Shown here: in pieces, positions 43,887 to 58,300 of the stretch
How the letters are laid out: each line of letters opens with the position of its first letter
Numbering within the stretch: the first letter of the stretch is position 1
Origin: an uncultured Verrucomicrobiae bacterium
GTDB taxonomy: Bacteria > Verrucomicrobiota > Verrucomicrobiia > Limisphaerales > UBA11358
Reading direction: 5' to 3'
Length of the DNA stretch: 64,000 nucleotides
Assembly (NCBI GenBank): GCA_963827205.1
Contig: CAWHAH010000002.1
Location: 263,711-327,710 of the forward strand
The notes under the pieces: generated by a model
Database searches by the model: none
Seen by the model: the letters and a program-made list of their open reading frames with translations, nothing else
Told to the model about the DNA's origin: nothing
Program-made: the position numbers and the translations under genes

Positions 43887-43977
43887 TTTCCCCGGTCACC
43901 TTGCCGGCGACGGGCTGAGCGACATAATCCCGTTGGGATGTTTTCCCCATCGTGTCCATCCTGTGAATCCTGTCTGA

Positions 43978-44364
43978 TCACTTCGCCAGCGGCGGGGCAG
44001 TCAGCCGCATTTGCTGCAACATTTGCTTCTGTTGAGCCTTCGGCTTGCCATTCATGGCGGCCAGCACGTCCAGCAACAATTTTTGCTGTTCCTGATACGC
44101 CTTGGACAGTTCGGCCCGGCACTCACCCGGATTTGAGTTGGTGCCACAGGCGTCCCAATGCGCGCGATACCAGTCGGAAAGCATGGCAAGCTGACTGGCC
44201 ACTTCCTTTTCCATCGGCGTGCAGGCGGTAATCTCGACAGAACCGCCAACAATCCCGGTCGCCGCGTTTCCGTCGGCGGAGAGCATGGTTTTGGTCGTGC
44301 AGCAGCCGGCCAGAAGCAGGGACAACATCAAAACGGCGGTCGCGATTGGATGTGGTCTTTTCAT
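43978..44364 (-). CDS. Hypothetical lipoprotein
   Basis: MKRPHPIATAVLMLSLLLAGCC lipobox. 128 aa. Confidence 0.6.
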   Translation of the reverse strand: MKRPHPIATAVLMLSLLLAGCCTTKTMLSADGNAATGIVGGSVEITACTPMEKEVASQLAMLSDWYRAHWDACGTNSNPGECRAELSKAYQEQQKLLLDVLAAMNGKPKAQQKQMLQQMRLTAPPLAK

Positions 44365-44404
44365 AAATTCAGATGTTTAGCGTTGTGGGGTTTGGGTCTG
44401 TTCA

Positions 44405-44722
44405 ACGGCAGGGATGACCTGCTGGTCGTCCGAGGCCGCGCGGCAGCACGGCCCTACCAACAACAGATCGAACTGACCCACTATTTTCATTTTGGAGTTT
44501 GAATCAATTTGACGGTAGGGACGACCTGCTGGTTGTCCGAGGCCGCGCGGCAGCGCGGCCCTACCAACAACAGATCGAACTGACTCACTATTTTCATTTT
44601 GGAGTTTGAATCAGTTTGACGGTAGGGACGACCTGCTGGTTGTTCGCAGCCGCGCGGCAGCACGGCCCTACCAACAACAGATCGAACTGGCTCACCATTT
44701 TCATTTTGGATTTGAAATGAAG
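44405..44722. repeat. Three tandem copies of a 107-bp unit (hairpin REP plus constant 51-nt spacer)
   Basis: GACCTGCTGG recurs at 44416, 44523 and 44630 (period 107). Each unit holds GGTAGGGAC..GGACGACCTGCTGGT.GTCC..GCCGCGCGGCAGC.CGGCCCTACC followed by AACAACAGATCGAACTGA.TCAC.ATTTTCATTTTGGA. Confidence 0.9.
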
Positions 44723-44850
44723 ACCCGCGCGCCAGAAGAGCGGTTCGATGCTTGAATGGCGCGCGGGTGAGGTGCAGCTTGCTGCCTGCTCGCGATTCAT
44801 CGGAGTCGCAGCAAGCCTCGGCGCGGGAAAGGTACCGCGCCTCACCAAGT

Positions 44851-45567
44851 TCAGGCCGCTTGCTTGATTTCACCCGCCGACTGCGGCGCGGGTGTCGGCG
44901 CCGGCGTCACCTTGGCTTTACCCGCGGACTCCACAATCAGCCGCGCATTACGGTAATCGGTCACAAAGACGGGATTGGCGGATTTGAATTGCAGTACCAG
45001 GGTGTCCATCTGGTCGGTCAGGACGGCGTCGGCGGCAGCGAATTCGTCGGCCAGTTGGCTGGTGGCGGTGGCCCCGGAGGCGCGCGCGTCGCGCGGCCTG
45101 GCGATGCTGGCCACGTAGGCGTCAATCGCGGCCTTGAGCGAGTCGAGCTTGGCGGTCGTGACGCCATAAGGCCCCAGATTGGCGAGGTTGGCGGTGGCGG
45201 CAGCGTGAACACTGCGCGCCGTATCACCGGCGGCGGTGTCGCGTCCACCGAGGATGCTGGAACGGTTCACGTTCACCTTGGCCGCAAGGTCGTTGTTCCG
45301 GGCCTTCCGGGCGCAGGCATAGACCGCGTTGGCAACCTCGACGGTTAAATCCGCCATCTCTTCGCGGAGCTTTTGTTTGTCCGCAGAAAGGCCCGTGGAA
45401 TCGGCGGCCTGGCTCTGTGCGATGTTCTGGATGTTTTGGACATGCGTGCCGAAATCAGCGTACGCGTCCCCGAATGCCTGCAATGCTTGCCAGGTGGAAT
45501 TGTTGCGGTCGCAAACGGCCTTGACCGCAAGGTACATGGACAACTTGTTTTCTTGTTTCGCATTCAT
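44851..45567 (-). CDS. Conserved hypothetical protein (helical, unknown function)
   Basis: 238-aa ORF MNAKQENKLSMYLAVKAV.... It resembles an uncharacterised family I recall from Bacteroidota and PVC genomes. No function known to me. Confidence 0.68.
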   Translation of the reverse strand: MNAKQENKLSMYLAVKAVCDRNNSTWQALQAFGDAYADFGTHVQNIQNIAQSQAADSTGLSADKQKLREEMADLTVEVANAVYACARKARNNDLAAKVNVNRSSILGGRDTAAGDTARSVHAAATANLANLGPYGVTTAKLDSLKAAIDAYVASIARPRDARASGATATSQLADEFAAADAVLTDQMDTLVLQFKSANPVFVTDYRNARLIVESAGKAKVTPAPTPAPQSAGEIKQAA

Positions 45568-45984
45568 AGTGTGAAAAGTGCGGCTCGGCCATTAGCCAAA
45601 TGCGTGCCAATGTTGTTAAAGCGTTAGAAATGCTTTACCTTGGCGGCGCCCAAATCGGTTAAGTAATTGTCAGACAGGCAAAAATAATTGGCGGGTTGAG
45701 TGTGAAAGCCAGGAGCTACGCCAATGCCGGTGTCCAATAAGTCACGACGGCTGAAAGAAGCTGGACAACGAGCGTAAGATATTCCGTGACGCCTGACGGA
45801 TGCGCTTGGTTCGCCCATAGATGCGCCATGATGACTGGCAGTCCGTCCAAGTCCGCCGCCAGACACGCCACGGCGGGTGACAGTGACAATAAATCAAGAG
45901 GACGCGACGCCATGACGATTACCAGACGGGCCATGACACCCGACAGCCGCATCGAATCGGGTGGAAGACTGTCCAAACTGATCC

Positions 45985-46255
45985 CTCTCCGCTTCCGTCT
46001 TCATCTGACTCCCGCCGTCGCCGTGCTTCCGTCTTCACTGAGTTACGCCGCGGCAAGTCGCGTGACAAGTCGGCGCGGCAAGTTGGCGCGGCAAGTTCGG
46101 AACGCGGCAAGGCGGGTTCGGGGAGCGCGACCGTCGCGGTCGCCGTTTGCAACGTCCCGTTGCAAACATTCTCCGGAGCGTCCGGCGCGACGCCGAACGC
46201 AGCGCGCGGGACCGGACTTCGCTCGGAAGCTACGACCCGGCAGGCGCACGCGCTC
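45985..46255. repeat. ~250-bp composite REP cluster, copy 1
   Basis: Shares GCGACCGTCGCGGTCGC, GCAACGTCCCGTTGC, GCGTCCGGCGCGACGC and CCGGACTTCGCTCGGAAGCTACGACCCGGCAGGCGCACGCGCTCCCC modules with 49433..49715, 50615..50860 and 50965..51175. Confidence 0.75.
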
Positions 46256-46455
46256 CCCTTCCGCCATGACGAAATGCCGAGTTTATATTTCATGCACCCG
46301 CCTTCGTTGCACTACGGCGCGGCAAGCTACTTCATTGTCAAACCGCCTGTCGCGACGAAGCCTTGGCGTAGGCGGATGCCCCAGCTTCGCCTTCCCGCCC
46401 TCCGCCATCATCAGACGCAAGCCGCTTTCATCCACCGCGCGCCGTGCCGGTTGAA
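46255..46455 (+). pseudogene. dpnI-like fragment (about aa 88-98 and 115-137)
   Basis: RHDEMPSLYFM, then a REP, then in another frame FAFPPSAIIRRKPLSSTARRAG. The homology stops at the junction with the toxin gene. Confidence 0.7.
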
Positions 46456-46843
46456 TGAGTCTGGTTGCCGCCGACCAAAGGATGATGCCGATGGAGCCGT
46501 GGGTTTCGATGCCGAGAGATTCAGCCATCAGCCGTGCGCCCGCGTCGTCGGTGAGAAACCAATCAGGTTTTGTTTCCAGCGCAAGGGCGAGAGCCTGGGC
46601 TTCGCCACCTTGCAACAATCCGGCGTGCTGCCATTCGGTGGCGCGCTGCCCGGCGGCGGGCGACAGGGTTTGATTGTTGGCCCAGCGGGGAAGTTGTCCC
46701 GGCCAGAGCGCGGGTGCGTGGACGCGGAGTTCGGCCAGGACGAGTGGTGCGAGCAGGACTTCGCCGATGAACTGGAACAGATGAAGCGCGCCGGCTTCGT
46801 GCAAATGCAAAATCGGGCCGGTGTCGGCGACGAGGCGTTTCAT
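46455..46843 (-). pseudogene. DUF3368-type PIN-like toxin, C-terminally truncated
   Basis: MKRLVADTGPILHLHEAG...GEAQALALALE...FLTDDAGARLMAESLGIETHGSIGIIL. The expected last ~30 aa are replaced by antisense dpnI-fragment sequence (ORF runs on to 46283). Confidence 0.62.
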
Positions 46844-47043
46844 TTGCCGCCGGATTTTTCGCGCAACGCCCAGGCAACATCGTCCAACTGCTGCCGTTCC
46901 ATCAGTTCAAAGCGGCGGCGGGAGATGAATTCGCGCAGCGCCACGCGCACGACTTCGGCGGTGTTTTCGAACACGCCGGTTTTCACGGCTTGTTCGACTT
47001 CACGCGCCATCTGGTCGGGCAATTCGACTTGCAGCGTTTTCAT
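46840..47043 (-). CDS. UPF0175-family antitoxin-like protein
   Basis: ATG at 47043. MKTLQVELPDQMAREVEQAVKTGVFENTAEVVRVALREFI. Its stop overlaps the toxin ATG (ATGA at 46840..46843). Confidence 0.7.
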   Translation of the reverse strand: MKTLQVELPDQMAREVEQAVKTGVFENTAEVVRVALREFISRRRFELMERQQLDDVAWALREKSGGK

Positions 47044-47194
47044 GGTGATTGAATAACACATTTTCCGGCGGTTTGCACGGTAAATTCGATAGTCATCGCG
47101 AGCAGGCGGCATCGGAGCAGGCTGCCCCAAGTGCGGGTGTAGCGGCTTTCGGCAGAAAGCCGCATTTCTATCGGCGGCGCTCTGCCGAGACGCC

Positions 47195-47650
47195 GCTACG
47201 CCAGAAATCGCGCATCGGCGACAGCATCACGGACGGCGCGTATGCGGCCATGATGAACGCCATCCGCCATGACGAAATGCCAAGTTTCTATTTCCTGCAC
47301 CCGCCTTCGTACCTGTCACCCGTCACGCGTCACGTGTCACCCCGACTTGGCTGGGTCGGTTGCAACTCTCCGTAAAAAACAACACGGGGCAGGTTGCTTT
47401 GAATCGCGTCCCCGCGGATGCGCGGATTGAAGTGGTGCGGACGATTGGGCCGCAGGGTGGCGCAGCCGTCCCGGCTGCTTCTGTGAATTTATCGGCGGGC
47501 AGGCGAGACGCCTGCGCTACGGTAATTGCCCCGCCGGAAGAAGTCCGCGAGCGATTCAAGCGCGTGAAGCCGCTCGGCGAAATCAAAGCCAAAGAACGGG
47601 GCTGGACGCTGGATGTGCTGAACATCGTGCGGCGGCTGGTGGAGGAAAAG
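47195..47650 (+). pseudogene. dpnI-like pseudogene copy (about aa 66-215), frameshifted and repeat-invaded
   Basis: KSRIGDSITDGAYAAMMNAIRHDEMPSFYF, then a GTCACC hairpin, GWVGCN, LNRVPADARIEVVRT, a REP at 47446..47522, then VIAPPEEVRERFKRVKPLGEIKAKERGWTLDVLNIVRRL. Confidence 0.85.
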
Positions 47651-47938
47651 CGCGCCAGCGCCTTGGAGTGCAGTGGCACGACACCGCTTTCCCTCTGGAT
47701 CATCTGCCTGAAACAGCCCCGCCCTTGCGCGCAAGAGCGGGGCGGAATATGCCGCTCCTGACGGAGCTTGAAACATTTGTTGGCGGGTGATTCTACAAAT
47801 ATGCCGCGCCGACGGCGCTTCCAATTCCATCTCCGCGTCTTTGCGCCCTTGCGTTAATTTCCCGGCCGGCGTCTGGCGATTGCCGCGATTCCCCTTTCGC
47901 GTGGTTCGCGTCCTTCGCGGTTGCTCACCCGGCGGCGG

Positions 47939-48340
47939 TTAGTGGTGACGTTTCTCGGTGATGGTCAGCGCCGGGTTCGAAACATCAACGCTCTGGACAA
48001 TCCCGTGGGCGTGCAGGCCGGTGGCAACATGCTTTTTGGTGGTTGACGTGGGGTTGGTGTTTTTCGAGTGCTTGACGGGATTGGGACCGGCGTCCCGGAT
48101 GTGAGTGGCCGTCAACACGCCATTGGCCTGCGTGTAGGCGATGCTGACGTGGTCGCCGGCCTTGATGTCGGCCAGCGTGGCGGACTTGTTGCCTTCCGCG
48201 GTGATTTTTGCGCCGGCGGCGATGGTGAAGGTCTGGGTTTCCGTGGCGTGCTTGCCGCCTGCCTGGGCCGAGAGCGTGACCGCCAGCAGCAGCGCGCCGG
48301 CAAGGGAAGCGGTTCGGGTTCGAAATCGTGATGTTTTCAT
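47939..48340 (-). CDS. Small secreted protein (DUF5666-like?)
   Basis: Signal peptide ...LAVTLSAQAGG. IKAGDHVSIAY motif. 133 aa. Confidence 0.62.
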   Translation of the reverse strand: MKTSRFRTRTASLAGALLLAVTLSAQAGGKHATETQTFTIAAGAKITAEGNKSATLADIKAGDHVSIAYTQANGVLTATHIRDAGPNPVKHSKNTNPTSTTKKHVATGLHAHGIVQSVDVSNPALTITEKRHH

Positions 48341-48449
48341 AGTTAATTTTTGTCTTATGTGCCCAACCTCTGTGGGCTTGCTTTATCAGACGCCGGGCGA
48401 AACGGTCTGGTTACGCAAAGTCCTTGCGGACGACTCCGGCGGATGGCGG

Positions 48450-48670
48450 CTGCCGGAGTTGGAGCCGGGCCATCCGGCCAGTGATTATTCCTGCCCCCAT
48501 TGCAGATTCTGGTATCAACTCAAAAGCCGGAAATCGCGCATCGGCGACAGCATCACGGACGGCGCGTATGCGGCGATGATGAACGCCATCCGCCACGACG
48601 AGTTGCAGGTCTAGCGCGACGCGGGATTATTGATGCATCTCAGTCGTGGCGAATGGCGATTGCCATGAGA
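48450..48670 (+). pseudogene. Internally deleted dpnI-like copy (about aa 44-95 joined to aa 281-297)
   Basis: LPELEPGHPASDYSCPHCRFWYQLKSRKSRIGDSITDGAYAAMMNAIRHDE is joined directly to LQV*RDAGLLMHLSRGEWRLP. Confidence 0.8.
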
Positions 48671-48705
48671 AGTTCAGGTGCGTAAATTCCGCTGGTCAAA
48701 GCGGC

Positions 48706-49287
48706 ATGAATCCACCCCCTGAGATGATCGAGGCCTTGGGCCTTCTGTTTTATGGAAATAGCAAGCGGAACCCGGTTGAAGGTATTGCACTGTTCGTACT
48801 TTGTGTCATCGCTATTATCTGGCTGAACAAAGTTCTTGGTAAAGGCACACAAACGGAAGCGAACGTTTCTCCAAATCAAATTCCGAGAGAAAAACTCCCG
48901 TTGGCGAAAAGATTTTGGCGTTCTATTTTACAGATGATTGATTTTTTCTGTAGTATTTATTTTCGGTGGGGCTTTCGTCCGAATGATGAACCTTTTCGCA
49001 GGGCGACAAAATCAGAGAAACGTGTGGGCGGATGTTTTATGGCGTTGTTGCCCGCCTTTTTTGCTGTTGTCATGACCCACACCCAATCCTTTGATGCAAT
49101 GGTTGATTCAATGATGTATGGGCATGTTTGGATGGGGTGGTTCTATTTGGGGTTTATCGCAGTGGTTGGCGGTGGAGTTTGGTTTGCTATAAAAGTTGCG
49201 CCGAAAATTCCGTTGTACGTCTCGGTCCCGGTGGCAATGGTAACCTGGCCGATTCTAGCGTGGTTCTTGTGGAGGCATAATCCATGA
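48706..49287 (+). CDS. Membrane protein, unknown function
   Basis: ATG at 48706 within ORF 48646..49287. 4-5 TM segments. Low GC (~45%). Confidence 0.55.
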   Translation: MNPPPEMIEALGLLFYGNSKRNPVEGIALFVLCVIAIIWLNKVLGKGTQTEANVSPNQIPREKLPLAKRFWRSILQMIDFFCSIYFRWGFRPNDEPFRRATKSEKRVGGCFMALLPAFFAVVMTHTQSFDAMVDSMMYGHVWMGWFYLGFIAVVGGGVWFAIKVAPKIPLYVSVPVAMVTWPILAWFLWRHNP

Positions 49288-49334
49288 ATCTTACGCGCGG
49301 TGGCATTACGGCTGCACGCCGGACCAGGCATCCG

Positions 49335-49975
49335 ACGTCTGCCGTAGCTGGAACCGGGGCATCCGGCCAGTGATTATTCCTCCGATATACTCCGATGAAT
49401 CGCGAGCAGGCGGCATCGGAGCAGGCTGCCCCAACTTCCGCCTTCATTTGACTCCTGCCGTCGCCGTGCTTCCGCCTCCATCGGATTTCCGTCTTCGCCG
49501 TGCTCCCGTCTTCACTGAGTTACGCCGCGGCAAGTCGCCGAGACAAGTCGGCGCGGCAAGGCGGTTTCGGGGAGCGCGACCGTCGCGGTCGCTGTTTGGA
49601 ACGTCCCGTTACGAACATTCCCCGGAGCGTCCGGCGCGACGCCGTCCGCAGCGTGCGGGACCGGACTTCGCTCGGAAGCTACGACCCGGCAGGCGCACGC
49701 GCTCCCCATTTCACCCGCGAACTGGAAGAACTCCATCCTGATAACCCCGTAAATAACACGGGGCGTAAAACACGGGGCAGGCCCCGTAAATAACACGGGG
49801 CAGGCCCCGTAAAATAACACGGGGCAGGAATCCGCCAGCAACTCCCGCCGTCGCTCCCACCTTCGTTTCACTCCGCCGCGGCAAGTCGCTATGGCGCGGC
49901 ACGTCAGGTTTTCCGCGATGCCGGATTGCTGCTTCACGTCGAGCGCGGCGTCTGGCGCTTGACGCAGGCCTCAAT
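49335..49975 (+). pseudogene. dpnI-like remnants (aa ~45-55, then aa ~255-297) separated by a REP cluster
   Basis: LEPGHPASDYS at 49335..49372. Then FTRELEELHPDNP, a hairpin array at 49745..49828, IRQQL, a REP, and FRDAGLLLHVERGVWRL. Confidence 0.7.
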
Positions 49976-50004
49976 TTTCATCGCCGGACCTTCAACCATT
50001 TTGG

Positions 50005-50433
50005 CTAGTCCCGTTGCAGAACGAAGTGACGAGCGCCCGGCGCATCGAAACTGGAGGGCACATCGGAAGTGCCAGGCTCGTACCCGGCAATGGTCAACGT
50101 GTCTCCGTTCAACTGATAGATTCCGCAAGCGGCTTTCCCAATGTATTCGCGCTGGTGACATTGAGTAATGGTGCCAACTATCTGCCGCGGATTTGTATCT
50201 TCCCGGACGGTGAAGGTTCCTCGACACCAATCGTCATTGTTGGCTCCCTGGAACTCAACCGTATTCCCGGAGAAGATGAAGTAACGCGTTCCTCCGGCGT
50301 TGCTGCCAATTTCCTGGCCTTTCCACGTTCCTTGAAGCGACGCCGCCTCTGATTGATGCAGCGTGGCGCATCCCGAAGTCCAAAACAACGCCCCGAGAGA
50401 AACCACGCCCAGGATGACTCTGGTTATTTTCAT
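50005..50433 (-). CDS. Lipoprotein, lipocalin-like (TIGR03067-like?)
   Basis: ATG at 50433. MKITRVILGVVSLGALFWTSGCA lipobox. LQGTWKGQEI...GIYQLNGDTLTIA pattern. Confidence 0.68.
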   Translation of the reverse strand: MKITRVILGVVSLGALFWTSGCATLHQSEAASLQGTWKGQEIGSNAGGTRYFIFSGNTVEFQGANNDDWCRGTFTVREDTNPRQIVGTITQCHQREYIGKAACGIYQLNGDTLTIAGYEPGTSDVPSSFDAPGARHFVLQRD

Positions 50434-50899
50434 AGTTTTCCTTTCGTTTTTGATTCGACAGGGGCAACAACTGATTGTCACGTCTAAAAATGGGCCTGGC
50501 GGGCGGGGCATCCGGTACTCGAAGGCTGAGGGCTGCCCGTCCTCCGCAGTAGCCCTGCTACGGAGGGTGGAAAGGCTAAAGGCTAAAGTGAAAATCCGCC
50601 AGCAACTCCAAGCCCTTCCGCCTTAATCTGGTTTCCGTCTCCGCGTGGCTCCGACGCGACGAGTCGGCGCGACAAGGCAGGTTCGGGGAGCGCAACCGTC
50701 GCGGTCGCCGTCCCGCCGTGCTCGCGCCCGTCGCGGCAGGTCGGAACGTCCCGTTACGAACATCCTTCCGTAAAAGCGTCCGGCGCGACGCCGAACGCAG
50801 CGTGCGGGACCGGACTTCGCTCGGAAGCTACGACCCGGCAGGCGCACGCGCTCCCCATTTCACCCGCGAACTGGAAAAGCTCCATCCCGATAACCCCTT

Positions 50900-50923
50900 A
50901 AAAAAACACGGGGCAGGCCCCGT
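50900..50923 (-). terminator. Terminator-like hairpin (minus-strand reading)
   Basis: Minus strand reads ACGGGGCCTGCCCCGT followed by GTTTTTTT. Embedded in a dpnI fragment. Confidence 0.35.
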
Positions 50924-51214
50924 AAATAACACGGGGCAGGAATCCGCCAGCAACTTCAAGTCCTTTCGCCTTAATCTGGTTTCCGTCTCCGCGTGGCTCC
51001 GACGCGACGAGTCGGCGCGACAAGGCAGGTTCGGGGAGCGCGACCGTCGCGGTCGCCGTCCCGCCGTGCTCGCGCCCGTCGCGGCAGGTCGGAACGTCCC
51101 GTTACGAACATCCTTCCGTAAAAGCGTCCGGCGCGACGCCGAACGCAGCGCGCGGGACGCACGCGCTCCCCATTTCACCCGCGAACTGGAAAAGCTCCAT
51201 CCCGATAACCCCGT

Positions 51215-51238
51215 AAAAAAACACGGGGCAGGCCCCGT
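51215..51238 (-). terminator. Terminator-like hairpin (minus-strand reading), ~310 nt downstream of the gene ending at 51548
   Basis: Same ACGGGGCCTGCCCCGT plus T7 module as at 50900. Confidence 0.38.
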
Positions 51239-51547
51239 AAATAATAGAGTTCCACGGGGCTGGCCGGCCGTGGTGAATGGAGATTGCCGTGAGTTGTCTG
51301 GTGGTAGGGCGGTGCTGCTGCGCCGCCTTGTAGATGGGCTGCGGAGCACCGCAGCCCTACCGTTGATTGCACATCGAGCGCGGCGTCTGGCGCTTGCCGT
51401 CGGGGCGCGGGCTGCCGGCCCGCGAGTTAAAAGAAAAACGCGGACAAGCTGTCCGCGCTCCGAAATGAGTGATAATTGGCGTCATGCGCGGATAAAAAAG
51501 TCGCGGCTGCCGTGACCCTCAACTCTCAACCCTCAACCTTCAACCAA

Positions 51548-52177
51548 TCAGTTCGGGGCAATGACATGGACCGCGTTTGAGGTCACCTCCACATCCAAGC
51601 CCGCATAGATGCTCCCGGCGGAAACCTCGCCGCCCGGATAGGTCTTTAATCTCTCCATTTGCGCCTGGAGCGCCGCAAGATTGTAGAATTTTCGCTCCAC
51701 AACGAGCCGTTCAGCCACGTCCCGGCGCAGACGGTTTTCGAGGAGGGCATAGTCGTTATTGGCCTGCGCCAGATTGGTCTCGGTCGAGGCGATTTGACTC
51801 GTGAGGCCGGCCATCTGGTTGGTCAAAGCCATCACGCGCCGGCTTAAAGTTTGATTCTCCGATTCCGCCCCCGCGACCTGCCGGGTCAGGTGGGTGATTT
51901 GTTCCGTGTCGCGAGCAATGGTGGATTCGGTTTCGGTCAGCAGGTTTGAAAGCGTCAATGACGCAGATTGGTAAACGTCGAGGCGGTTGGACAGTGTGAG
52001 CATCGTTCGGTTGCAGAGGACGATTTGCAACTGCGCCACGTCCAACCGGTTCGAAAAATCGGCAATCACGCCGGCATCATTCTCATGCTGCGCACTGTCA
52101 CCCCGCTTCACCATGACCAGGGCGATGACCAACGCGGCGCAGGCCAACACGAGGGCTACAGGCAAATATTGTTTCAT
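51548..52177 (-). CDS. Membrane-anchored coiled-coil protein
   Basis: ATG at 52177. MKQYLPVALVLACAALVIALVMV anchor followed by a long heptad region. Confidence 0.65.
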   Translation of the reverse strand: MKQYLPVALVLACAALVIALVMVKRGDSAQHENDAGVIADFSNRLDVAQLQIVLCNRTMLTLSNRLDVYQSASLTLSNLLTETESTIARDTEQITHLTRQVAGAESENQTLSRRVMALTNQMAGLTSQIASTETNLAQANNDYALLENRLRRDVAERLVVERKFYNLAALQAQMERLKTYPGGEVSAGSIYAGLDVEVTSNAVHVIAPN

Positions 52178-52354
52178 ACGGCGAGCAGCGCGCTCAAATG
52201 AAATTCGCGTCCGCTCATCGTCGAAAACTTCGCAAAGGCGAAACCGGTTGGACAAGAATGGATTTGTTACGATTCCGTTACACCCGGATACAGCGTTCAT
52301 GGCGCCAGTGCACACGAATTGAATTGCAGGGTTGGCGGGATTGAATTCAAGGGA

Positions 52355-52400
52355 GAAAGCGCGGCTGGACGCAAAACGGGCTGAACATTGTGAGATGACT
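52355..52400 (+). pseudogene. Short dpnI-like fragment (about aa 204-217)
   Basis: RKRGWTQNGLNIVR* compares with KERGWTLDVLNIVRRL at 47591..47640. Confidence 0.45.
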
Positions 52401-52630
52401 TTGCGAGGCAGGGACGCCTCGCCGAGACTGTCTCAAAACTTGTAGCAGCGGACGTGAGTCCGCTCCAATCTTATGCGAATCCCAAGAAAAGTGAGCCGGC
52501 TTACGCCGGCTGCTACGACAAGGGAGGGTTTTGAGACAGCCTCCGCCAAGGCGTCCGTGGTCATCGTGTTGAAACAGCTCCACCGGAGCGGAATCTTTGC
52601 AGCGTCCGAACCCCAAAGGTTTCGGTCGGT

Positions 52631-54103
52631 TCACGCCTCCGCTTTTTCCTGAGTGGAGCGCTTGGGGCTGGTGATGACGAGGACCAGTCCGATCCAAAGC
52701 AGCAGGGCCAGCGTGAGCGCCGGAATGAGCCACATCGGAAACAACCGGGACATTTCGGCGGGGCCAATTCCCTGCAGGCAGGCCGCCCACGCCTCGAGAC
52801 GGCAATTCAATAGCAACAGGATTATTCCCCAAACCGCAGCCATATGCCCCGCGACGGTGTGCACCACGGTCACTCCGGTTTTGCGGCGAACCTGGAGGAA
52901 ATGCGAGCCGCCGAGTGCGACCATCGTGGCCGTGATGATGGCGGCGGACACGACGTCATGCGCGCGCCACGCGAGATCAATCAGCCACCCAAAACACGCC
53001 AGGTACAAGCCCACGATCACAACGAGACTACGACCGGCGGTCAGCGGTTTCCGGACCGGTGGCGGTGCGTCGGCGGCTGCCCCAGGCTGTCGGCGGATGG
53101 CGAGGATGCGCCGGAACATCACAATGCACAACGTGGCGACGACCACGGCATAAAACCACCAAAAACCCGCCAGCACGGCAAAAAGCGTGTGGTCGTTCCA
53201 CGCCCAATGCCGGCCCAACGCCCGCAGGCCCAGTTGCCCGCCAATGCACCAGGCCAGCACAAAAACCCACAGGCTGAGGAACGCAATCTTTTTGATCCGG
53301 CGTTCGGCGGCCGTAGGCGCGGCCCGGAAAATCATCCAATGGGCCAGCATGCCGCCCAGGATTCCGATAATCGGCGCCAGCCACGCCCCCCAAAAACCCC
53401 ATTTGGCCGCGGCGGCGCCCTTGCCGGCCAGGCCGACCCCAACCGCGGCGGCCGGGGCGGCGGGCAACGCCGCGAGGACCGCACCCGAAAACGCCGGGCT
53501 CGGCGCCGTCCGGCGCAAGGCGCTTTCCACGAATACCTGCACTTCCTCCTGCAACAGTTTGCGGCCGCGCGACAGCCGCTGTTTGACGGCGTCTTCGGAC
53601 AATTCCAACGCCGCCGCCACGTGTTCGATGGATTGGTGCTCGCGATAAAACAGGATGAGTGGTTCGCGATAAAGCTCGGGGATTCTTTCCAGCGAGCGCC
53701 ATAAAATCGCCGCCTCCTCCCGACTGATGGTTTGTTCGGACGGCAGCGCCTCCCGCGCCGGCGAGTCATGCACGACTTCGAGCGGCTCGGCGTCGTGCGC
53801 GGGTTCGCGGCCCTCCCGTTGCAGGCTTTTGTGAATCCGGTTGCGGACAATGCCGCACAACCAGGCGCGGAGTTTGTCCGGCTCGCGCAAAAGCCGGAGG
53901 TGTTTCCAAGCGGTAATGAACGTTTCCTGCGCCACATCCTCGCTCTGGCCGAGATGGCCGATGCGGCTGTAGGCCAGCGAACAAATCAATATTTGATAGC
54001 GCGAGACAATGCGGCTGAAGGCGTCCCGGTCGCCAGCCAGGGTGCGTGAGACCAGTTCCGCATCGCTGTATTCCGCTGCTGCCATGGTTTCGTTTGTCAT
54101 CAT
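52631..54103 (-). CDS. ECF-type sigma-70 factor fused to a polytopic membrane domain
   Basis: ATG at 54103. Region 2 EDVAQETFITAWKHL. Region 4 QSIEHVAAALELSEDAVKQRLSRGRKLL. Then about 7 TM segments over 290 aa. Confidence 0.88.
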   Translation of the reverse strand: MMTNETMAAAEYSDAELVSRTLAGDRDAFSRIVSRYQILICSLAYSRIGHLGQSEDVAQETFITAWKHLRLLREPDKLRAWLCGIVRNRIHKSLQREGREPAHDAEPLEVVHDSPAREALPSEQTISREEAAILWRSLERIPELYREPLILFYREHQSIEHVAAALELSEDAVKQRLSRGRKLLQEEVQVFVESALRRTAPSPAFSGAVLAALPAAPAAAVGVGLAGKGAAAAKWGFWGAWLAPIIGILGGMLAHWMIFRAAPTAAERRIKKIAFLSLWVFVLAWCIGGQLGLRALGRHWAWNDHTLFAVLAGFWWFYAVVVATLCIVMFRRILAIRRQPGAAADAPPPVRKPLTAGRSLVVIVGLYLACFGWLIDLAWRAHDVVSAAIITATMVALGGSHFLQVRRKTGVTVVHTVAGHMAAVWGIILLLLNCRLEAWAACLQGIGPAEMSRLFPMWLIPALTLALLLWIGLVLVITSPKRSTQEKAEA

Positions 54104-54218
54104 ACTGCTAAAGATGTCCCTGCAAAGGGCAAAGAGGTGACAACAAATTTCGTCTGGTTGCCGGGACTCCCAACGGTCAACTGCTTCGCGGCCTCCGGCG
54201 GCTGGCGTGAGTGGTTTT

Positions 54219-54288
54219 ACAGAAGGGAACCAAGGGAACCAAGGTGGTAAACGGCTTCGATTGCTACGTTTGCTCCGTTTGCTTCGGT
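54219..54288. repeat. MITE-like AACAGAAG family, diverged copy 4
   Basis: ACAGAAGGGAACCAAGGGAACCAAGG ... CGTTTGCTCCGTTTGCTTCGGT. Confidence 0.6.
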
Positions 54289-54419
54289 CAGGCTTCCTCC
54301 GGGCGGCGTCACCGCCGCCGCGGTCCCCAAACGGCCGCCGGGGCGACGGGTTGCGAAAGGGGAAAAGAAATTTGCGATTTGTCGTGGTGGTGCGCGGGAG
54401 TCTGTTAAGCTGTCCGCCC

Positions 54420-54707
54420 ATGAACATACTCATCGAAAATCACGACACCCTGGAATATCTGGCCCAAGCCGGGCAGTGGACGAAAAATCCGCTCGAAGGC
54501 AAACGTTTTCCGGCAACGGTAACTGCGTTCCGCGAGGCGAAGCTTGAAGCCATCGGCAAATTCAACATCGTCTGTCACATTCCCGGAACGAACCAGTTCG
54601 TCAACCTGGATCATGGACGCGGCAAGGGGCTGCCGGCGGTCAGCCCGCCGCAGGCTCCGTCCGGAACGGGAGCTTTGCAGCAACCGGATGGCAGCCGCTC
54701 ACCTTAA
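54420..54707 (+). CDS. Small hypothetical protein
   Basis: ATG at 54420 ([20 protein letters not shown]...), 95 aa. Its 3' end overlaps the infA 3' end by 9 nt. Confidence 0.4.
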
Positions 54708-54914
54708 ACGCCAGACGATGCGCGCCTTGTCCAAATCGTAGGGAGACATCTCCATTTTCACGCGGTCGCCAACCGTCAATCGCACGAAGCGTTTGCGCAT
54801 CTTGCCGCAGATGGTGGCCAGCACCAGATGTTTGTTGTCGAGTTCGACGCGGAACATGGTGCCGGGCAGAACAACCTTCACACGGCCTTCCACTTCGATG
54901 TGTTCTTCTTTCAT
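54699..54914 (-). CDS. infA: Translation initiation factor IF-1
   Basis: [71 protein letters not shown], an S1-like IF-1 consensus. Confidence 0.95.
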
Positions 54915-54986
54915 GGGATGACGGGCAATCAAACGGTGGCATCCGGTTCATCCGAACCTCGCCGTGAGGTTGCGGCGCGATGATGA

Positions 54987-55283
54987 CTAACGGCTGCGAT
55001 TGCCGCCGCGATCACCGCCGCCGCCGGCGCGTTCTTCGCGCGGCCGGGCGACGTTGACGGTGAGGGCGCGTCCCTTCAATTCCTTCCCGTTCAGGGCGGC
55101 GATGGCTTTCTGCCCTTCCTCGTCGGTGCTCATGGTCACAAAACCAAAGCCGCGCGGGCGATGGGTGGTGCGGTCCATCACCAGGCTGGCTTCGGTGACC
55201 GTGCCGTGCGCGGCGAACGCGTCGTGCAGGTCCTGTTCGGTGACATCGAAAGAAAGATTGCCGACGTATAATTTATTGCTCAT
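54987..55283 (-). CDS. RRM-type RNA-binding protein with Gly/Arg tail
   Basis: RNP2 LYVGNL, RNP1 RGFGFVTM, C-terminal [12 protein letters not shown]. Confidence 0.93.
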
Positions 55284-55565
55284 GTGATGTTGAATTGTCT
55301 GATTTAACCGCGCTTTCCCAGACTGTTCCCGGACATCGGGTTTAAAATCATCACTGAACCAAGTTCACCTGAGATTCCCAGGCTTTGAAAGAGACGAGCT
55401 ATTCTAGACACCGGCAGCATCGCCGGTTCCGGGACAATAGCAACCACCATCTGCAATTATTTTTTACCCGCCATCCATCTGGCGTTTTGCGGCGCCGACG
55501 GTCCGGCGTAAAGAATAGCCCCGCGCCGGCCCGGCGGAGATGAGTGAGGAACGGGAGCGACACCC

Positions 55566-55748
55566 TCAAGTGGGAGCGACTTTGAGAACGTGCGGCAGGA
55601 ATTCGTGGCTGAAGAGGTCCACCCACCTGCCTTCCCGGTCGCGAAAGGCCATGCCTTTGAAGCCATTGCATTGGACCAGCACCGGCACGCTCCCGACCGG
55701 CAAAGGCCCGAATTTGTCCAGTTTGAATTCCTGCGCTTTGTCCTGCAT
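55566..55748 (-). CDS. Doubtful small ORF
   Basis: 60 aa, no recognisable family. Confidence 0.25.
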   Translation of the reverse strand: MQDKAQEFKLDKFGPLPVGSVPVLVQCNGFKGMAFRDREGRWVDLFSHEFLPHVLKVAPT

Positions 55749-55871
55749 AGAGCATCCTGCACTCGAATCAGGAACCGCGCCCGCTTTATTCCAAGATATC
55801 TTCTCCGGGGAATGCCTGAACGATAAGGGGCATAACCGGTCTAATAAGCATCATGTCAACCAAAGGCGCTC

Positions 55872-56030
55872 ATGCTGGCAAATTATGTCGGTAAATTGCT
55901 GTTCCCGCGATTGCAGTCCTCACAATACGGACAGAAGTTCAAAGTCATCGCGGCCGCCATATTACTAGGCCTGGCGGTCGGCGGCATTGTGGCCTCGGTA
56001 ATGATCTGGCAAGGGGCCGTCGGCAAATAG
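55872..56030 (+). CDS. Possible 52-aa single-TM protein
   Basis: MLANYVGKLLFPRLQSSQYGQKFKVIAAAILLGLAVGGIVASVMIWQGAVGK. It is below the ORF-track length cutoff and was read by eye. Confidence 0.3.
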   Translation: MLANYVGKLLFPRLQSSQYGQKFKVIAAAILLGLAVGGIVASVMIWQGAVGK

Positions 56031-56049
56031 CGATTCCCAGGGAAAACCC

Positions 56050-56307
56050 ATGAACAACCCGAGACAAAAGTATTCCCTCTACCGGGATGACGATTTGGTC
56101 GCCTCGGATTTGCCATCCCTGCCCTCCATCATGGAATTCGTCCGGAACGATGCCCGGCGCGAACATGCCGGGGGGCGGCCGGCCCGCTATCTGATTACCG
56201 GCTCGCTCGGATTCAAGCGCGCGGGGAGTCATTCGAAGGGCCGGATGGTTTGGGACGGTCAAATGCCCGGTCTGCACGCGGCCCGCTCCGGCGCCTTCCG
56301 GCCTTGA
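56050..56307 (+). CDS. Doubtful small ORF
   Basis: 85 aa, no recognisable family. Confidence 0.25.
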   Translation: MNNPRQKYSLYRDDDLVASDLPSLPSIMEFVRNDARREHAGGRPARYLITGSLGFKRAGSHSKGRMVWDGQMPGLHAARSGAFRP

Positions 56308-56480
56308 GCGACCAACCCCAACCCGGCGGCGGGGTGCGTGCGGTTGAAATAAAACTTGCGCGAAACCGCATCCGGGCGGAAACTGCCTGCAACAAGCAAG
56401 ACCGATTAGAGTTCAACCATTGTCGGGAGCGGGTCGGAGGTTCTCCTTCAGTCTTCAAAAGAGAAAGTTAAAAGTTATCT

Positions 56481-57281
56481 ATGACTATGTTCCTGTTTTG
56501 GTGCGCGGTCGGGAGTGTCGCCGGTGTCGTTTTCGGCTCCTTCTTCGAATGGACGTTACACCGTTATCTGATGCACCGTTCCTTTCTGGTGAAATTTTTC
56601 CGTTATCCGTACGAACGGCACACGCTCGTGCACCATCACATTTTCAAGGCGGACCACACGTATCATCTGGTGCATGAGCCGGACAAGAAGACCATTCCCA
56701 TGGCGTGGTGGAACGGCCCGGTGCTGGTGGCGGTGGGTTTGTTGCCGTTCTTGCTCTGGGCGTTGTTTTCGGAAAAGTGGGGCATCCTGTGCGGGGCGAC
56801 GGTGGCGTGCACGCTGTATTTCACAGCCTACGAATACATGCATTGGTGCATGCATCTGCCAAAGAAACGGCACGTGGAGCGTTCCGGCATCTTCTTCCGG
56901 CTCAACGGCCACCACCTGTTGCACCACCGTTACATGGGCAAAAACTTCAACGTGGTTCTGCCGCTGGCGGATTTATGTCTTGGCACGTTGTTGTTGCGCG
57001 CGAAGGTCGCCTTTGCGCAGGCGAAGGGGCCGTCCGTGCCGGACGTTCCAGCCGAGAAATCTGTATCCGGTGACAGCGCCGAGGGGCATTTAAACGCGCC
57101 GGAACCTGATCCGTTTCAAGGAAATTTCCAGCGGCGGAGTTTGACGCAGGTTGTGTTGAAAATCATGCGGCGCATTTCCGGGGCAGGGACGGGCGGGGTC
57201 AGCCATCCCGGCCAGGCAAGAAATTGTTTTCATATCCTTTGTTGGCTTCTGTGGGTCTGCCCTTCGGCGCCTTTACGTTAA
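56481..57281 (+). CDS. Fatty acid hydroxylase / sterol desaturase superfamily membrane protein
   Basis: His boxes HRYLMH, HTLVHHHIF, HWCMH and GHHLLHH. Confidence 0.85.
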   Translation: MTMFLFWCAVGSVAGVVFGSFFEWTLHRYLMHRSFLVKFFRYPYERHTLVHHHIFKADHTYHLVHEPDKKTIPMAWWNGPVLVAVGLLPFLLWALFSEKWGILCGATVACTLYFTAYEYMHWCMHLPKKRHVERSGIFFRLNGHHLLHHRYMGKNFNVVLPLADLCLGTLLLRAKVAFAQAKGPSVPDVPAEKSVSGDSAEGHLNAPEPDPFQGNFQRRSLTQVVLKIMRRISGAGTGGVSHPGQARNCFHILCWLLWVCPSAPLR

Positions 57282-57294
57282 AACCTTTTCCGTC

Positions 57295-57990
57295 TTACCA
57301 GACAAACGGGACGAGCCGGAAGCGGGTGTGCCGGCAGTATTCAGAATAGCCGGGCAGGTCGTGGCGAAGGATTTTTTCCTCGTTAAGCAGCCGGAAAACG
57401 ACGACCGGGATGAGGAGGGCAAAGGCCGGCAACGCGATGAACGAGCCGAGCGCCAGGGGAGCGCAGAGATACAGCACGACGAGGCCCAGATACATGGGAT
57501 GGCGAACGAGCCGGTAAGGACCGGTGGAAGCGACGGTCTGGCCCGCCTCGACCTGAATCACGCGCGCGGCAAAGCGGTTGACGTTCAAGACCTGGAAGAA
57601 CAGGAATTGACAACCCACAATCAGCGCCAAGGCCAGCAGGGTGAGCCACAACGGCACCGGTCCCGGAAAGGTGCGCGACCACCCGAAACGGTAATCCAAT
57701 CCGGGCAGCAAGAAGGACGGAAAGAAAATCAGACCGCCCAGTTTCTGCACGAGCCGTTGCTCGCTGATTTTTTCCCTGTTCAGCAGGCGGCGTTCGAGCA
57801 ATTGCGGGTCGCGTTTGAAGAAATAAATCACCACCAGGGCCGAGGAAATGAGATTCGAGATCATGAAGGCCCAGCCCTGCCAGAATTTCAACGTGCCGGC
57901 GGGAATAAACAGCATCGCCGCCAGAAGAAGCACGGCCAGCAAACCACGGCGAACCAATCTTGATTTGAGGCTTTTCCCGTCCGGCATCAC
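57295..57990 (-). CDS. Isoprenylcysteine carboxyl methyltransferase (ICMT/PEMT) family protein
   Basis: Multi-TM. TGPYRLVRHPMYLG signature and EEKILRHDLPGYSEY tail. Confidence 0.85.
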   Translation of the reverse strand: MMPDGKSLKSRLVRRGLLAVLLLAAMLFIPAGTLKFWQGWAFMISNLISSALVVIYFFKRDPQLLERRLLNREKISEQRLVQKLGGLIFFPSFLLPGLDYRFGWSRTFPGPVPLWLTLLALALIVGCQFLFFQVLNVNRFAARVIQVEAGQTVASTGPYRLVRHPMYLGLVVLYLCAPLALGSFIALPAFALLIPVVVFRLLNEEKILRHDLPGYSEYCRHTRFRLVPFVW

Positions 57991-57993
57991 TGT

Positions 57994-58300
57994 TTGATAA
58001 AACCACTCAACGAAATCCTCGTCAAGCTACGCGGCCAGACGTTGGACGGGTTGAACGCTGGAGCGGCGGTCTATGACCGTCGCAAATCTTCCGGCGCTCA
58101 CCGGGCGCCGCTACAATCATGGAAAGAGTTCACCGCCGACGCATACACCTTCACCCGTGAACTGGAACAATTGCGTCCTGACAATCGGCTTGTCCGGCCT
58201 GAAATCCGTCAGCAGTTGCAAGTCCTTCCGTCTCCACTACGTTTCGACGCGACAAGGTGTGACGCGGGATTATTGCTTCACATCGGTGGCGGCATCCGGC
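57994..58300 (+). pseudogene. Stand-alone dpnI-like winged-helix-domain fragment (about aa 193-297), single frame, with two in-frame REPs
   Basis: IKPLNEILVKLRGQTLDGLNAG[REP]KEFTADAYTFTRELEQLRPDNRLVRPEIRQQLQVL[REP]CDAGLLLHIGGG. Only a TTG start is available. Confidence 0.7.

Follow-up and report, generated by a model that had tools for sequence, protein, structure and literature searches.

Arrays of truncated gene copies behind one intact gene have been described for rhs toxin genes, where displacement through homologous recombination with a circular intermediate and without a dedicated recombinase was proposed (Jackson et al. 2009, PMC2935791). The 64-kb window of DNA from an uncultured Verrucomicrobiae bacterium analysed here in its whole length (locus W; L-numbers denote related loci) contains a comparable arrangement: as in the rhs, cdiA and mafB orphan arrays (PMC2935791), an intact gene heads a series of co-oriented copies that are truncated at the 5' end and differ in length, and, as in the rhs arrays, the copies keep their own 3' ends, other genes intervene and old, conserved alleles, not fast-diverging ones, supply the incoming parts (PMC2935791). 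However, the present array has a small cytoplasmic DpnI-family protein as its anchor instead of a secreted polymorphic toxin, the homology extends across the whole gene instead of being divided into conserved core and variable tip, the place of a cognate immunity gene is taken by heterogeneous cargo (toxin-antitoxin (TA) pairs, lipoproteins, glycoside hydrolases, infA), and many copies are split by cargo.

The intact DpnI-like gene (42065..42958, plus strand; 297 aa; PF06044 and PF17726) forms the 5' end of the array, and its conserved upstream neighbour is a beta-class N6-adenine DNA methyltransferase (PF01555; 39282..40670, plus strand), which in the window has an in-frame stop right behind the DPPY motif. 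In its interdomain linker the intact gene carries an in-frame palindromic small-repeat insertion (42566..42677, plus strand), which occurs a second time at 36333-36452. The window was searched with the intact gene (tblastn, blastn) and with a DNA profile from 11 intact homologues (nhmmer). The profile detected 15 significant pieces, all on the plus strand, all downstream of the intact gene and confined to 46.2-58.3 kb, while no significant DpnI match was obtained by the three programs elsewhere in the 64 kb or on the minus strand. All the co-oriented fragments listed in the preliminary description were thus recovered on the plus strand, and its cassettes, as well as infA (54699-54932), were found in place, although three fragment boundaries required correction. 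The array consists of 12-16 kb of same-direction gene remnants with unrelated genes in between.

Behind the intact gene lies cargo that, among the examined loci, was seen in this lineage alone and has no counterpart in the other fetched loci, namely a CPBP/Rce1-like protease (plus), a lipoprotein (minus) and a 238-aa protein (minus) at 43011..45567. The first copy, F1 (45934..46457), which like all copies is on the plus strand, begins with an additional piece, a diverged class-A leader joined to codons 36-41 (45934-45985; match score 58 versus 19 +/- 3.5 for shuffles), and continues with composite repeat CR1 (45985-46256) and codons 88-138 (46260-46457, E 2.7e-21). The toxin-antitoxin cassette (46283..47130, minus) encodes a DUF3368/PIN-like toxin and an RHH/VapB-like antitoxin. 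Copy F2 (47095..47638) starts with an "X" motif and codons 56-60; a double hairpin of 61 nt (47139-47199) then stands in place of codons 61-67, which hold the QxK catalytic motif, and is followed by codons 68-242 with internal deletions (47200-47299, E 1.6e-27; 47343-47638, E 9e-40), so that the piece at 47.2-47.65 kb extends to aa 242 and not, as first read, to aa 215. A 133-aa lipoprotein cassette (47939..48340, minus) separates it from F3 (48400..48665), a fusion of a 3'-end remnant, codons 41-93 and codons 275-297 with the stop (48458-48606, E 1e-40; 48601-48664, E 4e-8), in which the junction at 48447 is of the class-C head-to-tail type; additional "WRLP" remnants of the 3' end stand immediately ahead of 48447 and 49336.

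Further downstream a low-GC cassette for a 213-aa membrane protein (48646..49287, plus) is followed by F4 and F5 (49289..49964), which comprise a "WRLP*" remnant, codons 41-55, the X motif, CR2 (49468-49707) and codons 255-297 broken up by small repeats (49340-49381, E 1e-4; 49709-49746, E 2e-3; 49903-49962, E 5e-9). Behind the cassette of a TIGR03067-domain lipoprotein (50005..50511, minus) comes the group F6 (50563..51400) with codons 44-50 (50563-50585, an additional piece), a small repeat, codons 270-280, two tandem units (CR3 and CR4, each with codons 242-280) and two 3' ends (50586-50617, E 9e-3; 50858-50969, E 4e-9; 51173-51210, E 7e-5; 51366-51398, E 0.05). The coiled-coil protein cassette (51548..52315, minus) precedes F7 (52345-52404, E 2.5e-4), a weak match to codons about 224-243; the 52.35-kb piece, reported before as aa 204-217, is reassigned to aa 224-240. 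The large block between F7 and F8 (52631..57990) holds genes for an ECF sigma factor-membrane protein fusion, infA, an RRM protein, a 60-aa ORF, a fatty-acid hydroxylase and an ICMT-like methyltransferase, together with one additional DpnI piece (57109-57182, E 1.6e-3). Copy F8 (57997-58306, E 4e-33) covers codons 218-293 and not aa 193-297 as initially given; its allele has a private in-frame insertion in common with the intact protein P0092 of another genome, and next to the copy lies DUF4190, whose position as a neighbour is conserved in L024.

The phenomenon is wider than it first appeared, since about 20 MAGs of Verrucomicrobiota and 26 contigs from peat metagenomes also contain polar co-oriented arrays. 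The layout thus recurs among many Verrucomicrobiota of soil and peat, and most species of the clade have it. About 300 pieces in these MAGs and contigs point in the same direction and none in the opposite one: in the related loci 156 of 158 matches are co-oriented, both exceptions being a palindromic repeat and not DpnI, and in the 26 contigs the count is 147 of 147. Where a full-length gene is present (13 non-redundant loci), all 40 pieces are downstream of it and none was found in the ~133 kb of upstream DNA examined; confinement to the DpnI locus applies at the scale of 20-64 kb windows only. The natural 3' end and stop are kept by 57 of 100 copies, while the starts are spread across codons 19-60 and 221-280: the copies, truncated at the 5' side, form a nested set anchored at the 3' end. 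Because the truncation points fall mostly in codons 19-60, nearly whole genes were displaced, not 3' ends alone. The first 19 codons are never duplicated, and no age gradient in fragment length is visible. Among adjacent pairs 67 of 82 are of duplication type and 15 of split type, with cargo within one copy plus an internal deletion. Displacement can be followed in the BON block: L009 has the order MTase-DpnI-BON, and in L020 (93% identical) and L017 (90%) the block has stayed attached to a DpnI 3' end, yet lies at least 8 kb further downstream, behind other copies and cargo; a "last 12 nt plus spacer" block common to L015, L023 and L007 is likewise still joined and displaced downstream.

This topology bears out serial displacement at the DpnI gene, one of three origins proposed earlier, and resembles accretion at the 3' ends of tRNA, tmRNA and protein genes (e14 at icd; ICE/CIME at fda), where successive insertions can be read from displaced co-oriented ends and the targeted gene remains intact. 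The attached proposal of site-specific integration, in which elements targeting the DpnI gene supply its replacement part and their integrases have been lost or act in trans, gained no such support. It would give the same polar, co-oriented displaced copies, and it could draw on the clustering of left boundaries in codons 19-45, on 12 copies, belonging to 9 species, in which a conserved leader of ~50 nt is fused to codon 36, and on the TA modules that are frequently found beside 3' ends. But integrative elements of that kind come with an integrase and a fixed crossover core, whereas here the left boundaries vary, fall into several classes across the whole gene and indicate no single core site, and crossovers inside fragments occur at many positions (in a block shared by L017 and L020 identity falls from 94% to 81% within a fragment). 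No tyrosine or serine recombinase or other integrase was found in the 64-kb window, in ORFs of ~180 aa and longer of arrays L011, L016, L017 and L024, or among the precomputed Pfam matches of L001, L026 and L027. The leader is more like diverged codons 22-35 than an element arm, and the cargo represents ordinary chromosomal genes in either orientation, so site-specific accretion is judged unlikely.

The sequences of the copies indicate their source. As was first noticed, the fragments are mutually closer than to the intact copy: F2 and F3 are 96-97% identical to each other versus 92-94% to the intact gene, and the C-terminal pieces share the family consensus (FTRELE.LHPDN, RDAGLLLH), while the C-terminus of the intact gene is L005-like. 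The derivation from a single second paralog is nevertheless too simple, and the fragments stem instead from several diverged alleles of one family that were functional until recently. Between a fragment and its nearest intact allele the pooled dN/dS is 0.21-0.23 with dS of 0.8-1.1 (intact-intact median dN/dS 0.15), and only 49 stops occur in 7764 codons. C-terminal pieces inside one locus are 72-85% identical with mostly synonymous differences, and none of the fragments comes near identity with the intact gene of its own locus. The intact genes are mosaics of allele types, that of the window included, with 20-codon bins from 50% to 98% identity inside one pair.

Local tandem amplification of the gene with its neighbours and subsequent decay with random losses holds only for parts of the array. 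It is favoured by the tandem duplicate 50593-50929/50941-51244 (88% identical), by the ~93% identity of F1 and F2 to the intact gene, whose linker insertion they share in L001, by the repeat-to-repeat junction through which the TA cassette stands behind the lipoprotein cassette in L031, of the same species as W, and by a neighbour order that is permuted between species with orientation kept. However, it does not agree with fragments at dS ~1 and dN/dS ~0.2, with the C-terminal divergence described above, with the unduplicated first 19 codons, or with discordant cassette similarities between species; moreover, no remnants or paralogues of any cargo gene were found, DpnI alone leaving remnants. 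As the general origin of the arrays it is very unlikely.

Another reading treats the truncated copies as a maintained library of silent cassettes that diversifies the expressed gene by gene conversion, as in pilE/pilS, vlsE and MgPa, with which these loci share promoter-less partial copies near one expressed gene and mosaic expressed genes. The co-oriented, 5'-truncated copies downstream of one expressed gene, the strong mosaicism of the intact genes, the low dN/dS, the few stops, the presence of arrays in most species of the clade and one conversion-like replacement in F3 between L001 and W would suit it. In contrast to those systems, nothing suggests that the expressed gene varies rapidly, the DpnI-like protein being identical across all four conspecific contigs; the frame-breaking hairpins, small repeats and deletions in the fragments vary between strains, which indicates that the copies are decaying, and whole unrelated genes, infA among them, lie between them. 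Together with the lack of fragments nearly identical to their own intact gene, this makes a silent library quite unlikely.

The capture and spread of gene pieces by the adjoining composite repeats or MITEs was also proposed, since such repeats border several fragments with the right end at differing codons (codon 66 in L001; 88, 255 and 255 in the window). Yet transposing elements are expected to scatter in both orientations, and in 456 kb the repeat ends were met only beside DpnI pieces and on the plus strand (15:0 and 14:0), the hairpin is confined to the place between codons 60 and 68, and no composite-repeat or hairpin copies were found elsewhere in the window. Their confinement and single orientation largely refute this origin, which is hardly credible, and characterize the repeats as passengers inside copied pseudogenes.

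Cargo cassettes move between species, and within a species they are reshuffled. The distal ones (ICMT, the 60-aa ORF, coiled-coil, lipoC, DUF4190) are common to other species: the coiled-coil cassette is also downstream of DpnI in L006 and L018, and the TIGR03067 cassette has DpnI pieces on its flanks in four species with different codons in each. Cassette similarities are discordant, as W and L023 share lipoC at 88% and ICMT at 68%, while W and L017 share the antitoxin, which sits within the L017 array, at 94% and lipoC at 75%. Integrons and superintegrons likewise contain co-oriented repeats between exchangeable cassettes, TA modules included, but here integrase and attC-type sites are missing and the cargo genes, which have promoters of their own, point either way. 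In Neisseria minimal mobile elements exchange would similarly use flanking homology, although their flanks, unlike the DpnI arrays, are not duplicated. Long direct repeats also flank inserted genes at restriction-type loci without mobile-element genes in RM-linked insertion with long target duplication (Furuta, Abe and Kobayashi 2010, PMC2853133); there, however, the insert is the RM unit and the target duplication spans 30 to a few hundred bp of other sequence, while here the restriction-type gene is itself the target, repeated many times.

The loci combine polarity, co-orientation, 3'-anchored nesting, diverged functional alleles, mosaic intact genes and cassette exchange with reshuffling, and these features probably reflect an rhs-type "C-terminal displacement", i.e., additive homologous recombination at the DpnI gene followed by erosion. 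Incoming DNA with a whole or partial DpnI allele and adjoining genes would recombine repeatedly within the resident gene, either as a circle excised through recombination between two co-oriented copies or as a linear piece of another array that is taken up and recombines ends-in. Codons close to the promoter would stay single-copy, leaving one chimeric intact gene at the upstream end, whereas the prior copy, 5'-truncated, would be shunted downstream along with all genes behind it. Repeated rounds would yield co-oriented, 3'-anchored nested copies with cargo between and within them; junctions of cargo and truncated copies carried along in later transfers may account for the same junction types in different species, and the silent copies would erode by small-repeat insertion, internal deletions, unequal crossing-over and gene conversion. 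The adding step is presumed to be RecA-type recombination with a circular or ends-in intermediate, and the path of DNA between cells is likewise presumed; no such intermediate was observed among these loci, L031 not being a closed circle. Against displacement it can be considered that at allele dS ~1 recombination would need short stretches of 90-98% identity, that at least one illegitimate event is required per new left junction, that the split-type pairs need extra events, that fragment length shows no age gradient, that an infA-bearing block lies within the array, and that a recombinase encoded elsewhere in the genome might act in trans. Taken together, the locus is best explained as a displacement array with a DpnI-family gene as its anchor.

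The array is headed by an intact gene on the plus strand (42065-42958), whose 297-aa product of the DpnI family is matched by an N-terminal PD-(D/E)XK domain (PF06044, aa 1-164, E 2.4e-54) and a C-terminal winged-helix domain (PF17726, aa 228-291, E 3.3e-21), and by the R.DpnI structure (PDB 4ESJ) over both domains at E 2.4e-59. R.DpnI is characterized by the catalytic residues E25, D53, E64, and K66 and by four zinc-binding cysteines, and its activity is abolished by the E64A substitution (PMC3424567). The window protein keeps E25, D53, K66, and the zinc cysteines C34/C37/C56/C59, but where R.DpnI has the catalytic Glu64 its codon 64 (42254-42256) encodes Gln in a QLK motif, as in 22 of the 22 relatives inspected. 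Judged by sequence it belongs to the DpnI family, with the reservation of Gln at this catalytic position, and since the Q64 proteins are under purifying selection they may be either non-canonical nucleases or readers of m6A-DNA. According to the alignment, intact homologues tolerate in-frame small-repeat insertions at three hot spots, of which one follows aa 103, one lies in the linker (aa 165-205), and one follows aa 242; in the window gene a palindromic small repeat lies in-frame in the linker (42566-42677) and occurs a second time at 36333-36452.

The upstream neighbour of the DpnI-like gene in related loci is usually an N6-adenine methyltransferase. In the window this gene (39282-40670) carries an in-frame stop within a short insertion directly after the DPPY motif; in the conspecific metagenome contig L001 it is frameshifted and spread over three frames, and in the homologous loci L020 and L019 it is truncated. 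Because the DpnI-like gene stays intact while the methyltransferase is broken, a methylation-dependent or non-toxic partner would fit this arrangement, and not a classical restriction-modification pair. Between both genes the window has an AIPR gene of the abortive-infection type (40717-41955), present in this lineage only, and at the same spot the locus L026 has a protein kinase; therefore this gap appears to be an insertion site as well.

The window was searched with the intact gene by tblastn and blastn, and on both strands by nhmmer with a DNA profile from 11 intact homologues. The profile gave 15 significant matches, all on the plus strand between 46.2 and 58.3 kb, with E-values ranging from 1e-40 (48458-48606) to 2.5e-4 (a weak piece at 52345-52404); it found no significant DpnI match elsewhere in the 64-kb window and none on the minus strand, where the only matches are those of the palindromic small repeat. 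Every fragment listed in the preliminary description was recovered by the searches with the intact gene and by the profile, and additional pieces came to light: a diverged leader with codons 36-41 (45934-45985), 3'-end remnants just before 48447 and 49336, codons 44-50 (50563-50585), and a further profile match at 57109-57182. The copies are designated below as F1 to F8 in the 5' to 3' direction.

The annotation of the cassettes lying between the copies was likewise borne out, namely a PIN-like/RHH toxin-antitoxin pair, three lipoproteins, a membrane protein, and a block with infA; the other cargo includes a coiled-coil protein, and the block is made up of an ECF sigma factor, infA, an RRM protein, a fatty-acid hydroxylase, and an ICMT-like enzyme. 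As a rule infA is a single-copy essential gene; here (54699-54932) it is situated inside the array together with the RRM protein and the ECF sigma factor, which is fused to a membrane protein, and such an infA/RRM/ECF sigma block near DpnI was not found in any other fetched locus. About 30 C-terminal residues of the PIN-like toxin ORF are encoded by the antisense strand of F1 (within 46283-46460); this part resembles the intact gene's antisense strand at 42406-42483 (88%), and the ORF extends into the fragment. A tandem repeat of a ~107-bp unit (~3 copies, 86-91% identical) is located at 44383-44716 between a lipoprotein and a 238-aa gene, and two large paralogous TPR proteins are encoded at 5817-8366 and 15320-17920.

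With the window protein 22 loci from other Verrucomicrobiota MAGs were fetched, most of which hold several DpnI pieces, with a maximum of 21 in 20 kb (L017). In 156 of 158 cases the DpnI matches are co-oriented with the main gene, the two exceptions being the palindromic repeat, and in 26 peat contigs (L032-L057), obtained by scanning metagenomes with a 58-nt element found inside one window fragment, all 147 of 147 matches are co-oriented. As to polarity, in 13 non-redundant loci with a full-length gene 40 pieces lie downstream, none upstream, and none on the opposite strand, with ~133 kb of upstream sequence covered. This is the architecture of rhs-type arrays, where a single intact gene at the upstream end is followed by co-oriented 5'-truncated copies. 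No description of DpnI fragment arrays, or of such arrays at any restriction-type gene, was found in the literature.

With colinear pieces joined into copies, the natural stop codon is the end point of 57 of 100, while their start points vary and are most frequent at codons 21-60 and 221-280; the copies are a 3'-anchored nested set. Also as in rhs-type arrays, the truncated copies of variable length keep their own 3' end and downstream DNA, and the flanks found downstream of fragments in one species recur behind the intact gene of another. Because of the nested 3'-anchored set a diversity-generating retroelement or retro-copying was considered, and it was rejected: all copies lie locally and in one orientation, and the Pfam matches of the screened window and array ORFs and annotations include no reverse-transcriptase domain. 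Adjacent copies form either duplication-type pairs (67 of 82), in which the right copy begins upstream of the end point of the left one, or split-type pairs (15 of 82), in which cargo lies within one copy and an internal segment is deleted; duplication of the first 19 codons was never found in the loci analysed. Some C-terminal "fragments" covering the winged-helix half (codons 145-297) are complete ORFs (L017 4011-4421 and L020 6703-7221), which overlap the end of the upstream arylsulfotransferase gene, have a dN/dS of ~0.2, and might be expressed as stand-alone proteins.

The left junctions belong to a few recurrent classes, at least four, with starts over the whole gene. In class A a conserved ~50-nt leader resembling diverged codons 22-35 is fused to codon 36 (12 copies in 9 species); in class B a small element, which is the start of the "composite repeat" of the window, is always placed between codons 41 and 42; and in class C the stop codon is joined head-to-tail to codons 40-44. 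A 61-nt double hairpin replaces codons 61-67 (window 47139-47199) and is 97-99% identical across species (the window, L016, L017, L024, L004, and the peat contigs); DpnI copies have it exclusively between codons 60 and 68, with the result that the catalytic (E/Q)xK motif is replaced and the reading frame shifted. An Rfam scan of 41-59.5 kb gave nothing at threshold, and hence hairpin and leader do not belong to any known RNA; in viral contigs the hairpin unit had no match, so a link to phages is absent.

Composite-repeat ends and the hairpin occur only beside or inside DpnI pieces and only on the plus strand (15:0, 14:0, and all hairpins). A free MITE or transposable small repeat was rejected, as neither element is dispersed in both orientations and independently of one host sequence. 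The junction elements are insertions into pseudogene copies which were then co-propagated, and for this reason the proposal that pieces of the gene were captured and spread by composite repeats was abandoned as extremely improbable, the repeats being passengers of copied pseudogenes.

The fragments were further compared with their nearest intact alleles. The pooled dN/dS is 0.21-0.23 at dS 0.8-1.1, with 49 stops in 7764 aligned codons, both values being obtained from a protein-based alignment that favours conserved stretches, and the intact-to-intact median dN/dS is 0.15. Many fragments are uninterrupted over 100-240 codons, C-terminal pieces of one locus are only 72-85% identical to each other, and a private in-frame insertion of F8 is also found in P0092, an intact DpnI-like protein from another genome. 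From these data the fragments descend from several diverged alleles, which still functioned until a short time before they were truncated, and, as in rhs-type arrays, the displaced parts are old conserved alleles rather than rapidly diverged local copies. Descent from a single second paralog, as first supposed, was not sustained: the fragments derive from several alleles, and a distinct clade of this kind was rejected since the second "DpnI" of L026 is merely a 5'- and 3'-truncated copy which groups with ordinary alleles.

Tandem amplification followed by decay accounts for a part of the array. F1 and F2 are ~93% identical to the intact gene, the linker insertion of which is common to them in L001, and the F6 tandem pair is 88% identical; judged by these identities they look like local duplicates, the only ones in the window. 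As a general account purely local amplification is very unlikely, because no paralogue or remnant of any cargo gene was found in the window and the fragments come from diverged alleles. Duplication of whole segments with random loss was excluded on similar grounds, namely that cargo lacks paralogues and remnants and that DpnI stands out among all ORFs by having partial copies.

The direction of growth can be read from the BON gene block. In L009 the order is simply methyltransferase, DpnI, and BON, while in L020 (93% identical) and L017 (90% identical) the block has kept its junction with a DpnI 3' end, yet its distance from the methyltransferase is greater by at least 8 kb, with other copies and cargo in front of it; the block comprising the last 12 nt of DpnI plus spacer behaves in the same way in L015, L023, and L007. 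The window cargo adjoining the intact gene (a CPBP protease, a lipoprotein, and the 238-aa protein) has no counterpart in the other fetched loci, whereas the distal cargo (the TIGR03067-domain lipoprotein cassette lipoC at 50005-50511, the coiled-coil protein, a 60-aa ORF, ICMT, and DUF4190) is common to other species with orientation kept and order changed. Therefore new material enters at the gene and older material is pushed downstream.

Such displacement had been expected from serial site-specific integration at the DpnI gene, and with the BON block lying behind other copies this part of the proposal holds. Accretion by an integrase is itself improbable, since no recombinase was found in or beside the screened arrays and the several junction classes do not share a single core (att) break. 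The screen covered ORFs of at least 200 aa in the window and the large ones in L011, L016, L017, and L024, together with the annotations already computed for L001, L026, and L027, and neither a tyrosine nor a serine recombinase was detected among them. The sole traces of mobile elements are an rve IS at the contig end, beyond the array in both conspecific contigs, and a small DDE remnant at 23.0 kb; in the ORF at 23039-24208 this remnant, a short piece of a DDE_Tnp_1_4 transposase, is accompanied by a pilin-like N-terminal methylation motif. A conserved recombinase of an unknown kind was also rejected as a candidate, as the ORF families common to the loci are methyltransferase, cargo, or antisense ORFs, and the single large family of unknown kind (475-829 aa) is present in 4 loci, in 2 of them outside the arrays.

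Signatures of recombination are found in genes and cassettes alike. Intact genes are mosaic, with 20-codon bins ranging from ~50% to 98% nucleotide identity within a single pair; general nucleotide conservation of the 5' region was rejected, since synonymous sites are on average well diverged in all 11 intact genes and high identity occurs in patches. The block fragment-arylsulfotransferase-fragment is 94% identical between L017 and L020 and falls to 81% in the middle of the second fragment. Cassette similarities are discordant with those of their neighbours (lipoC 88% and ICMT 68% for the window versus L023; antitoxin 94% and lipoC 75% versus L017), and lipoC is bracketed by DpnI pieces in four species, with different codons in each. 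The conspecific contigs L001-L003 encode an identical protein and have the same array up to window position 50628; in L001 codons 56-69 of F3 are replaced, in a conversion-like manner, by the repeat that follows F4, and in the conspecific L031 the toxin-antitoxin cassette comes after a lipoprotein cassette via a repeat-to-repeat junction. L031 was not accepted as a circular molecule, its ends having no overlap and one of them being new sequence.

A library of silent cassettes maintained for variation of the expressed gene is quite unlikely. In silent-cassette conversion systems the expressed gene varies from resident silent copies, whereas here its product does not differ among 4 conspecific contigs, the changes that distinguish the copies of different strains are of the decay type, and resident fragments are at most 94% identical to their own expressed gene.

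Displacement of the rhs type by homologous recombination is probably the best explanation of the arrays, in which we infer the adding step and the route of DNA transfer. According to the "C-terminal displacement" model proposed for rhs genes by Jackson et al., homologous recombination between two co-oriented copies frees a circle with a gene fragment and the intervening genes, and the circle DNA is added by homologous recombination with the resident gene (PMC2935791). In the present case recombination between two co-oriented copies would release a circle carrying a DpnI fragment and the genes between them, such DNA would be added to a resident gene by homologous recombination, and the outcome would be a single intact gene of chimeric make-up, while the former copy would come to lie downstream, 5'-truncated at the inherited junction. 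This displacement model explains the co-orientation, the polarity, and the nested 3'-anchored set, as well as the few junction classes across species, the mosaic intact genes, the exchange and reshuffling of cassettes, and the missing recombinases.

The array works like an rhs-type displacement array, yet it is not one by membership. The rhs arrays are built on a polymorphic toxin whose C-terminal tip varies and which has a cognate immunity gene, whereas here the anchor is DpnI-like, the cargo is heterogeneous and of non-immunity type, and homology spans the whole gene. The cargo consists of ordinary genes on both strands, including toxin-antitoxin pairs (VapBC-like and HicA-type), lipoproteins, BON, GH30, GH99, TPR, PEP-CTERM, RCC1, and NHL proteins. 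Integrons possess intI, attI, and attC-bounded cassettes in one orientation, while here there is no integrase, the cargo occupies both strands, and fragments of a gene make up the repeats. Small two-gene modules, which recall the toxin-antitoxin cassettes of superintegrons, are often placed directly after DpnI stop codons in several species (L014 11073-11309, L011 10977-11464, and L015 10895-11360); among them are a HicA toxin and two pairs lacking annotation that are conserved across 4-5 species.

It can be speculated, with considerable doubt, that the arrays are a recombinase-free cassette platform, in which DpnI-derived repeats would serve as portable homology arms with an attC-like role, RecA alone would suffice to excise and reshuffle cassettes and to carry them from one species to another, toxin-antitoxin modules would stabilise the array, and now and then the expressed DpnI-like gene, for an m6A reader or a nuclease with Gln at the catalytic Glu, would be re-assorted by the copies. 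If this is true, genes between two DpnI pieces could land in any genome that holds the gene.

The displacement-array architecture, known so far from polymorphic toxin genes such as rhs, cdiA, and mafB, is hereby extended to a gene of the restriction type, in a phylum that has received little study. Plastic regions exceeding 17 kb, which gather and exchange unrelated genes without any mobile-element machinery, can be anchored by a single small gene, and this bears on the movement of accessory genes in uncultured soil and peat bacteria and on annotation, since many short "DpnI domain" ORFs in these MAGs are pseudogene pieces. It bears equally on the turnover of restriction-type genes, as the arrays are a fossil record of past alleles from which this turnover could be reconstructed.
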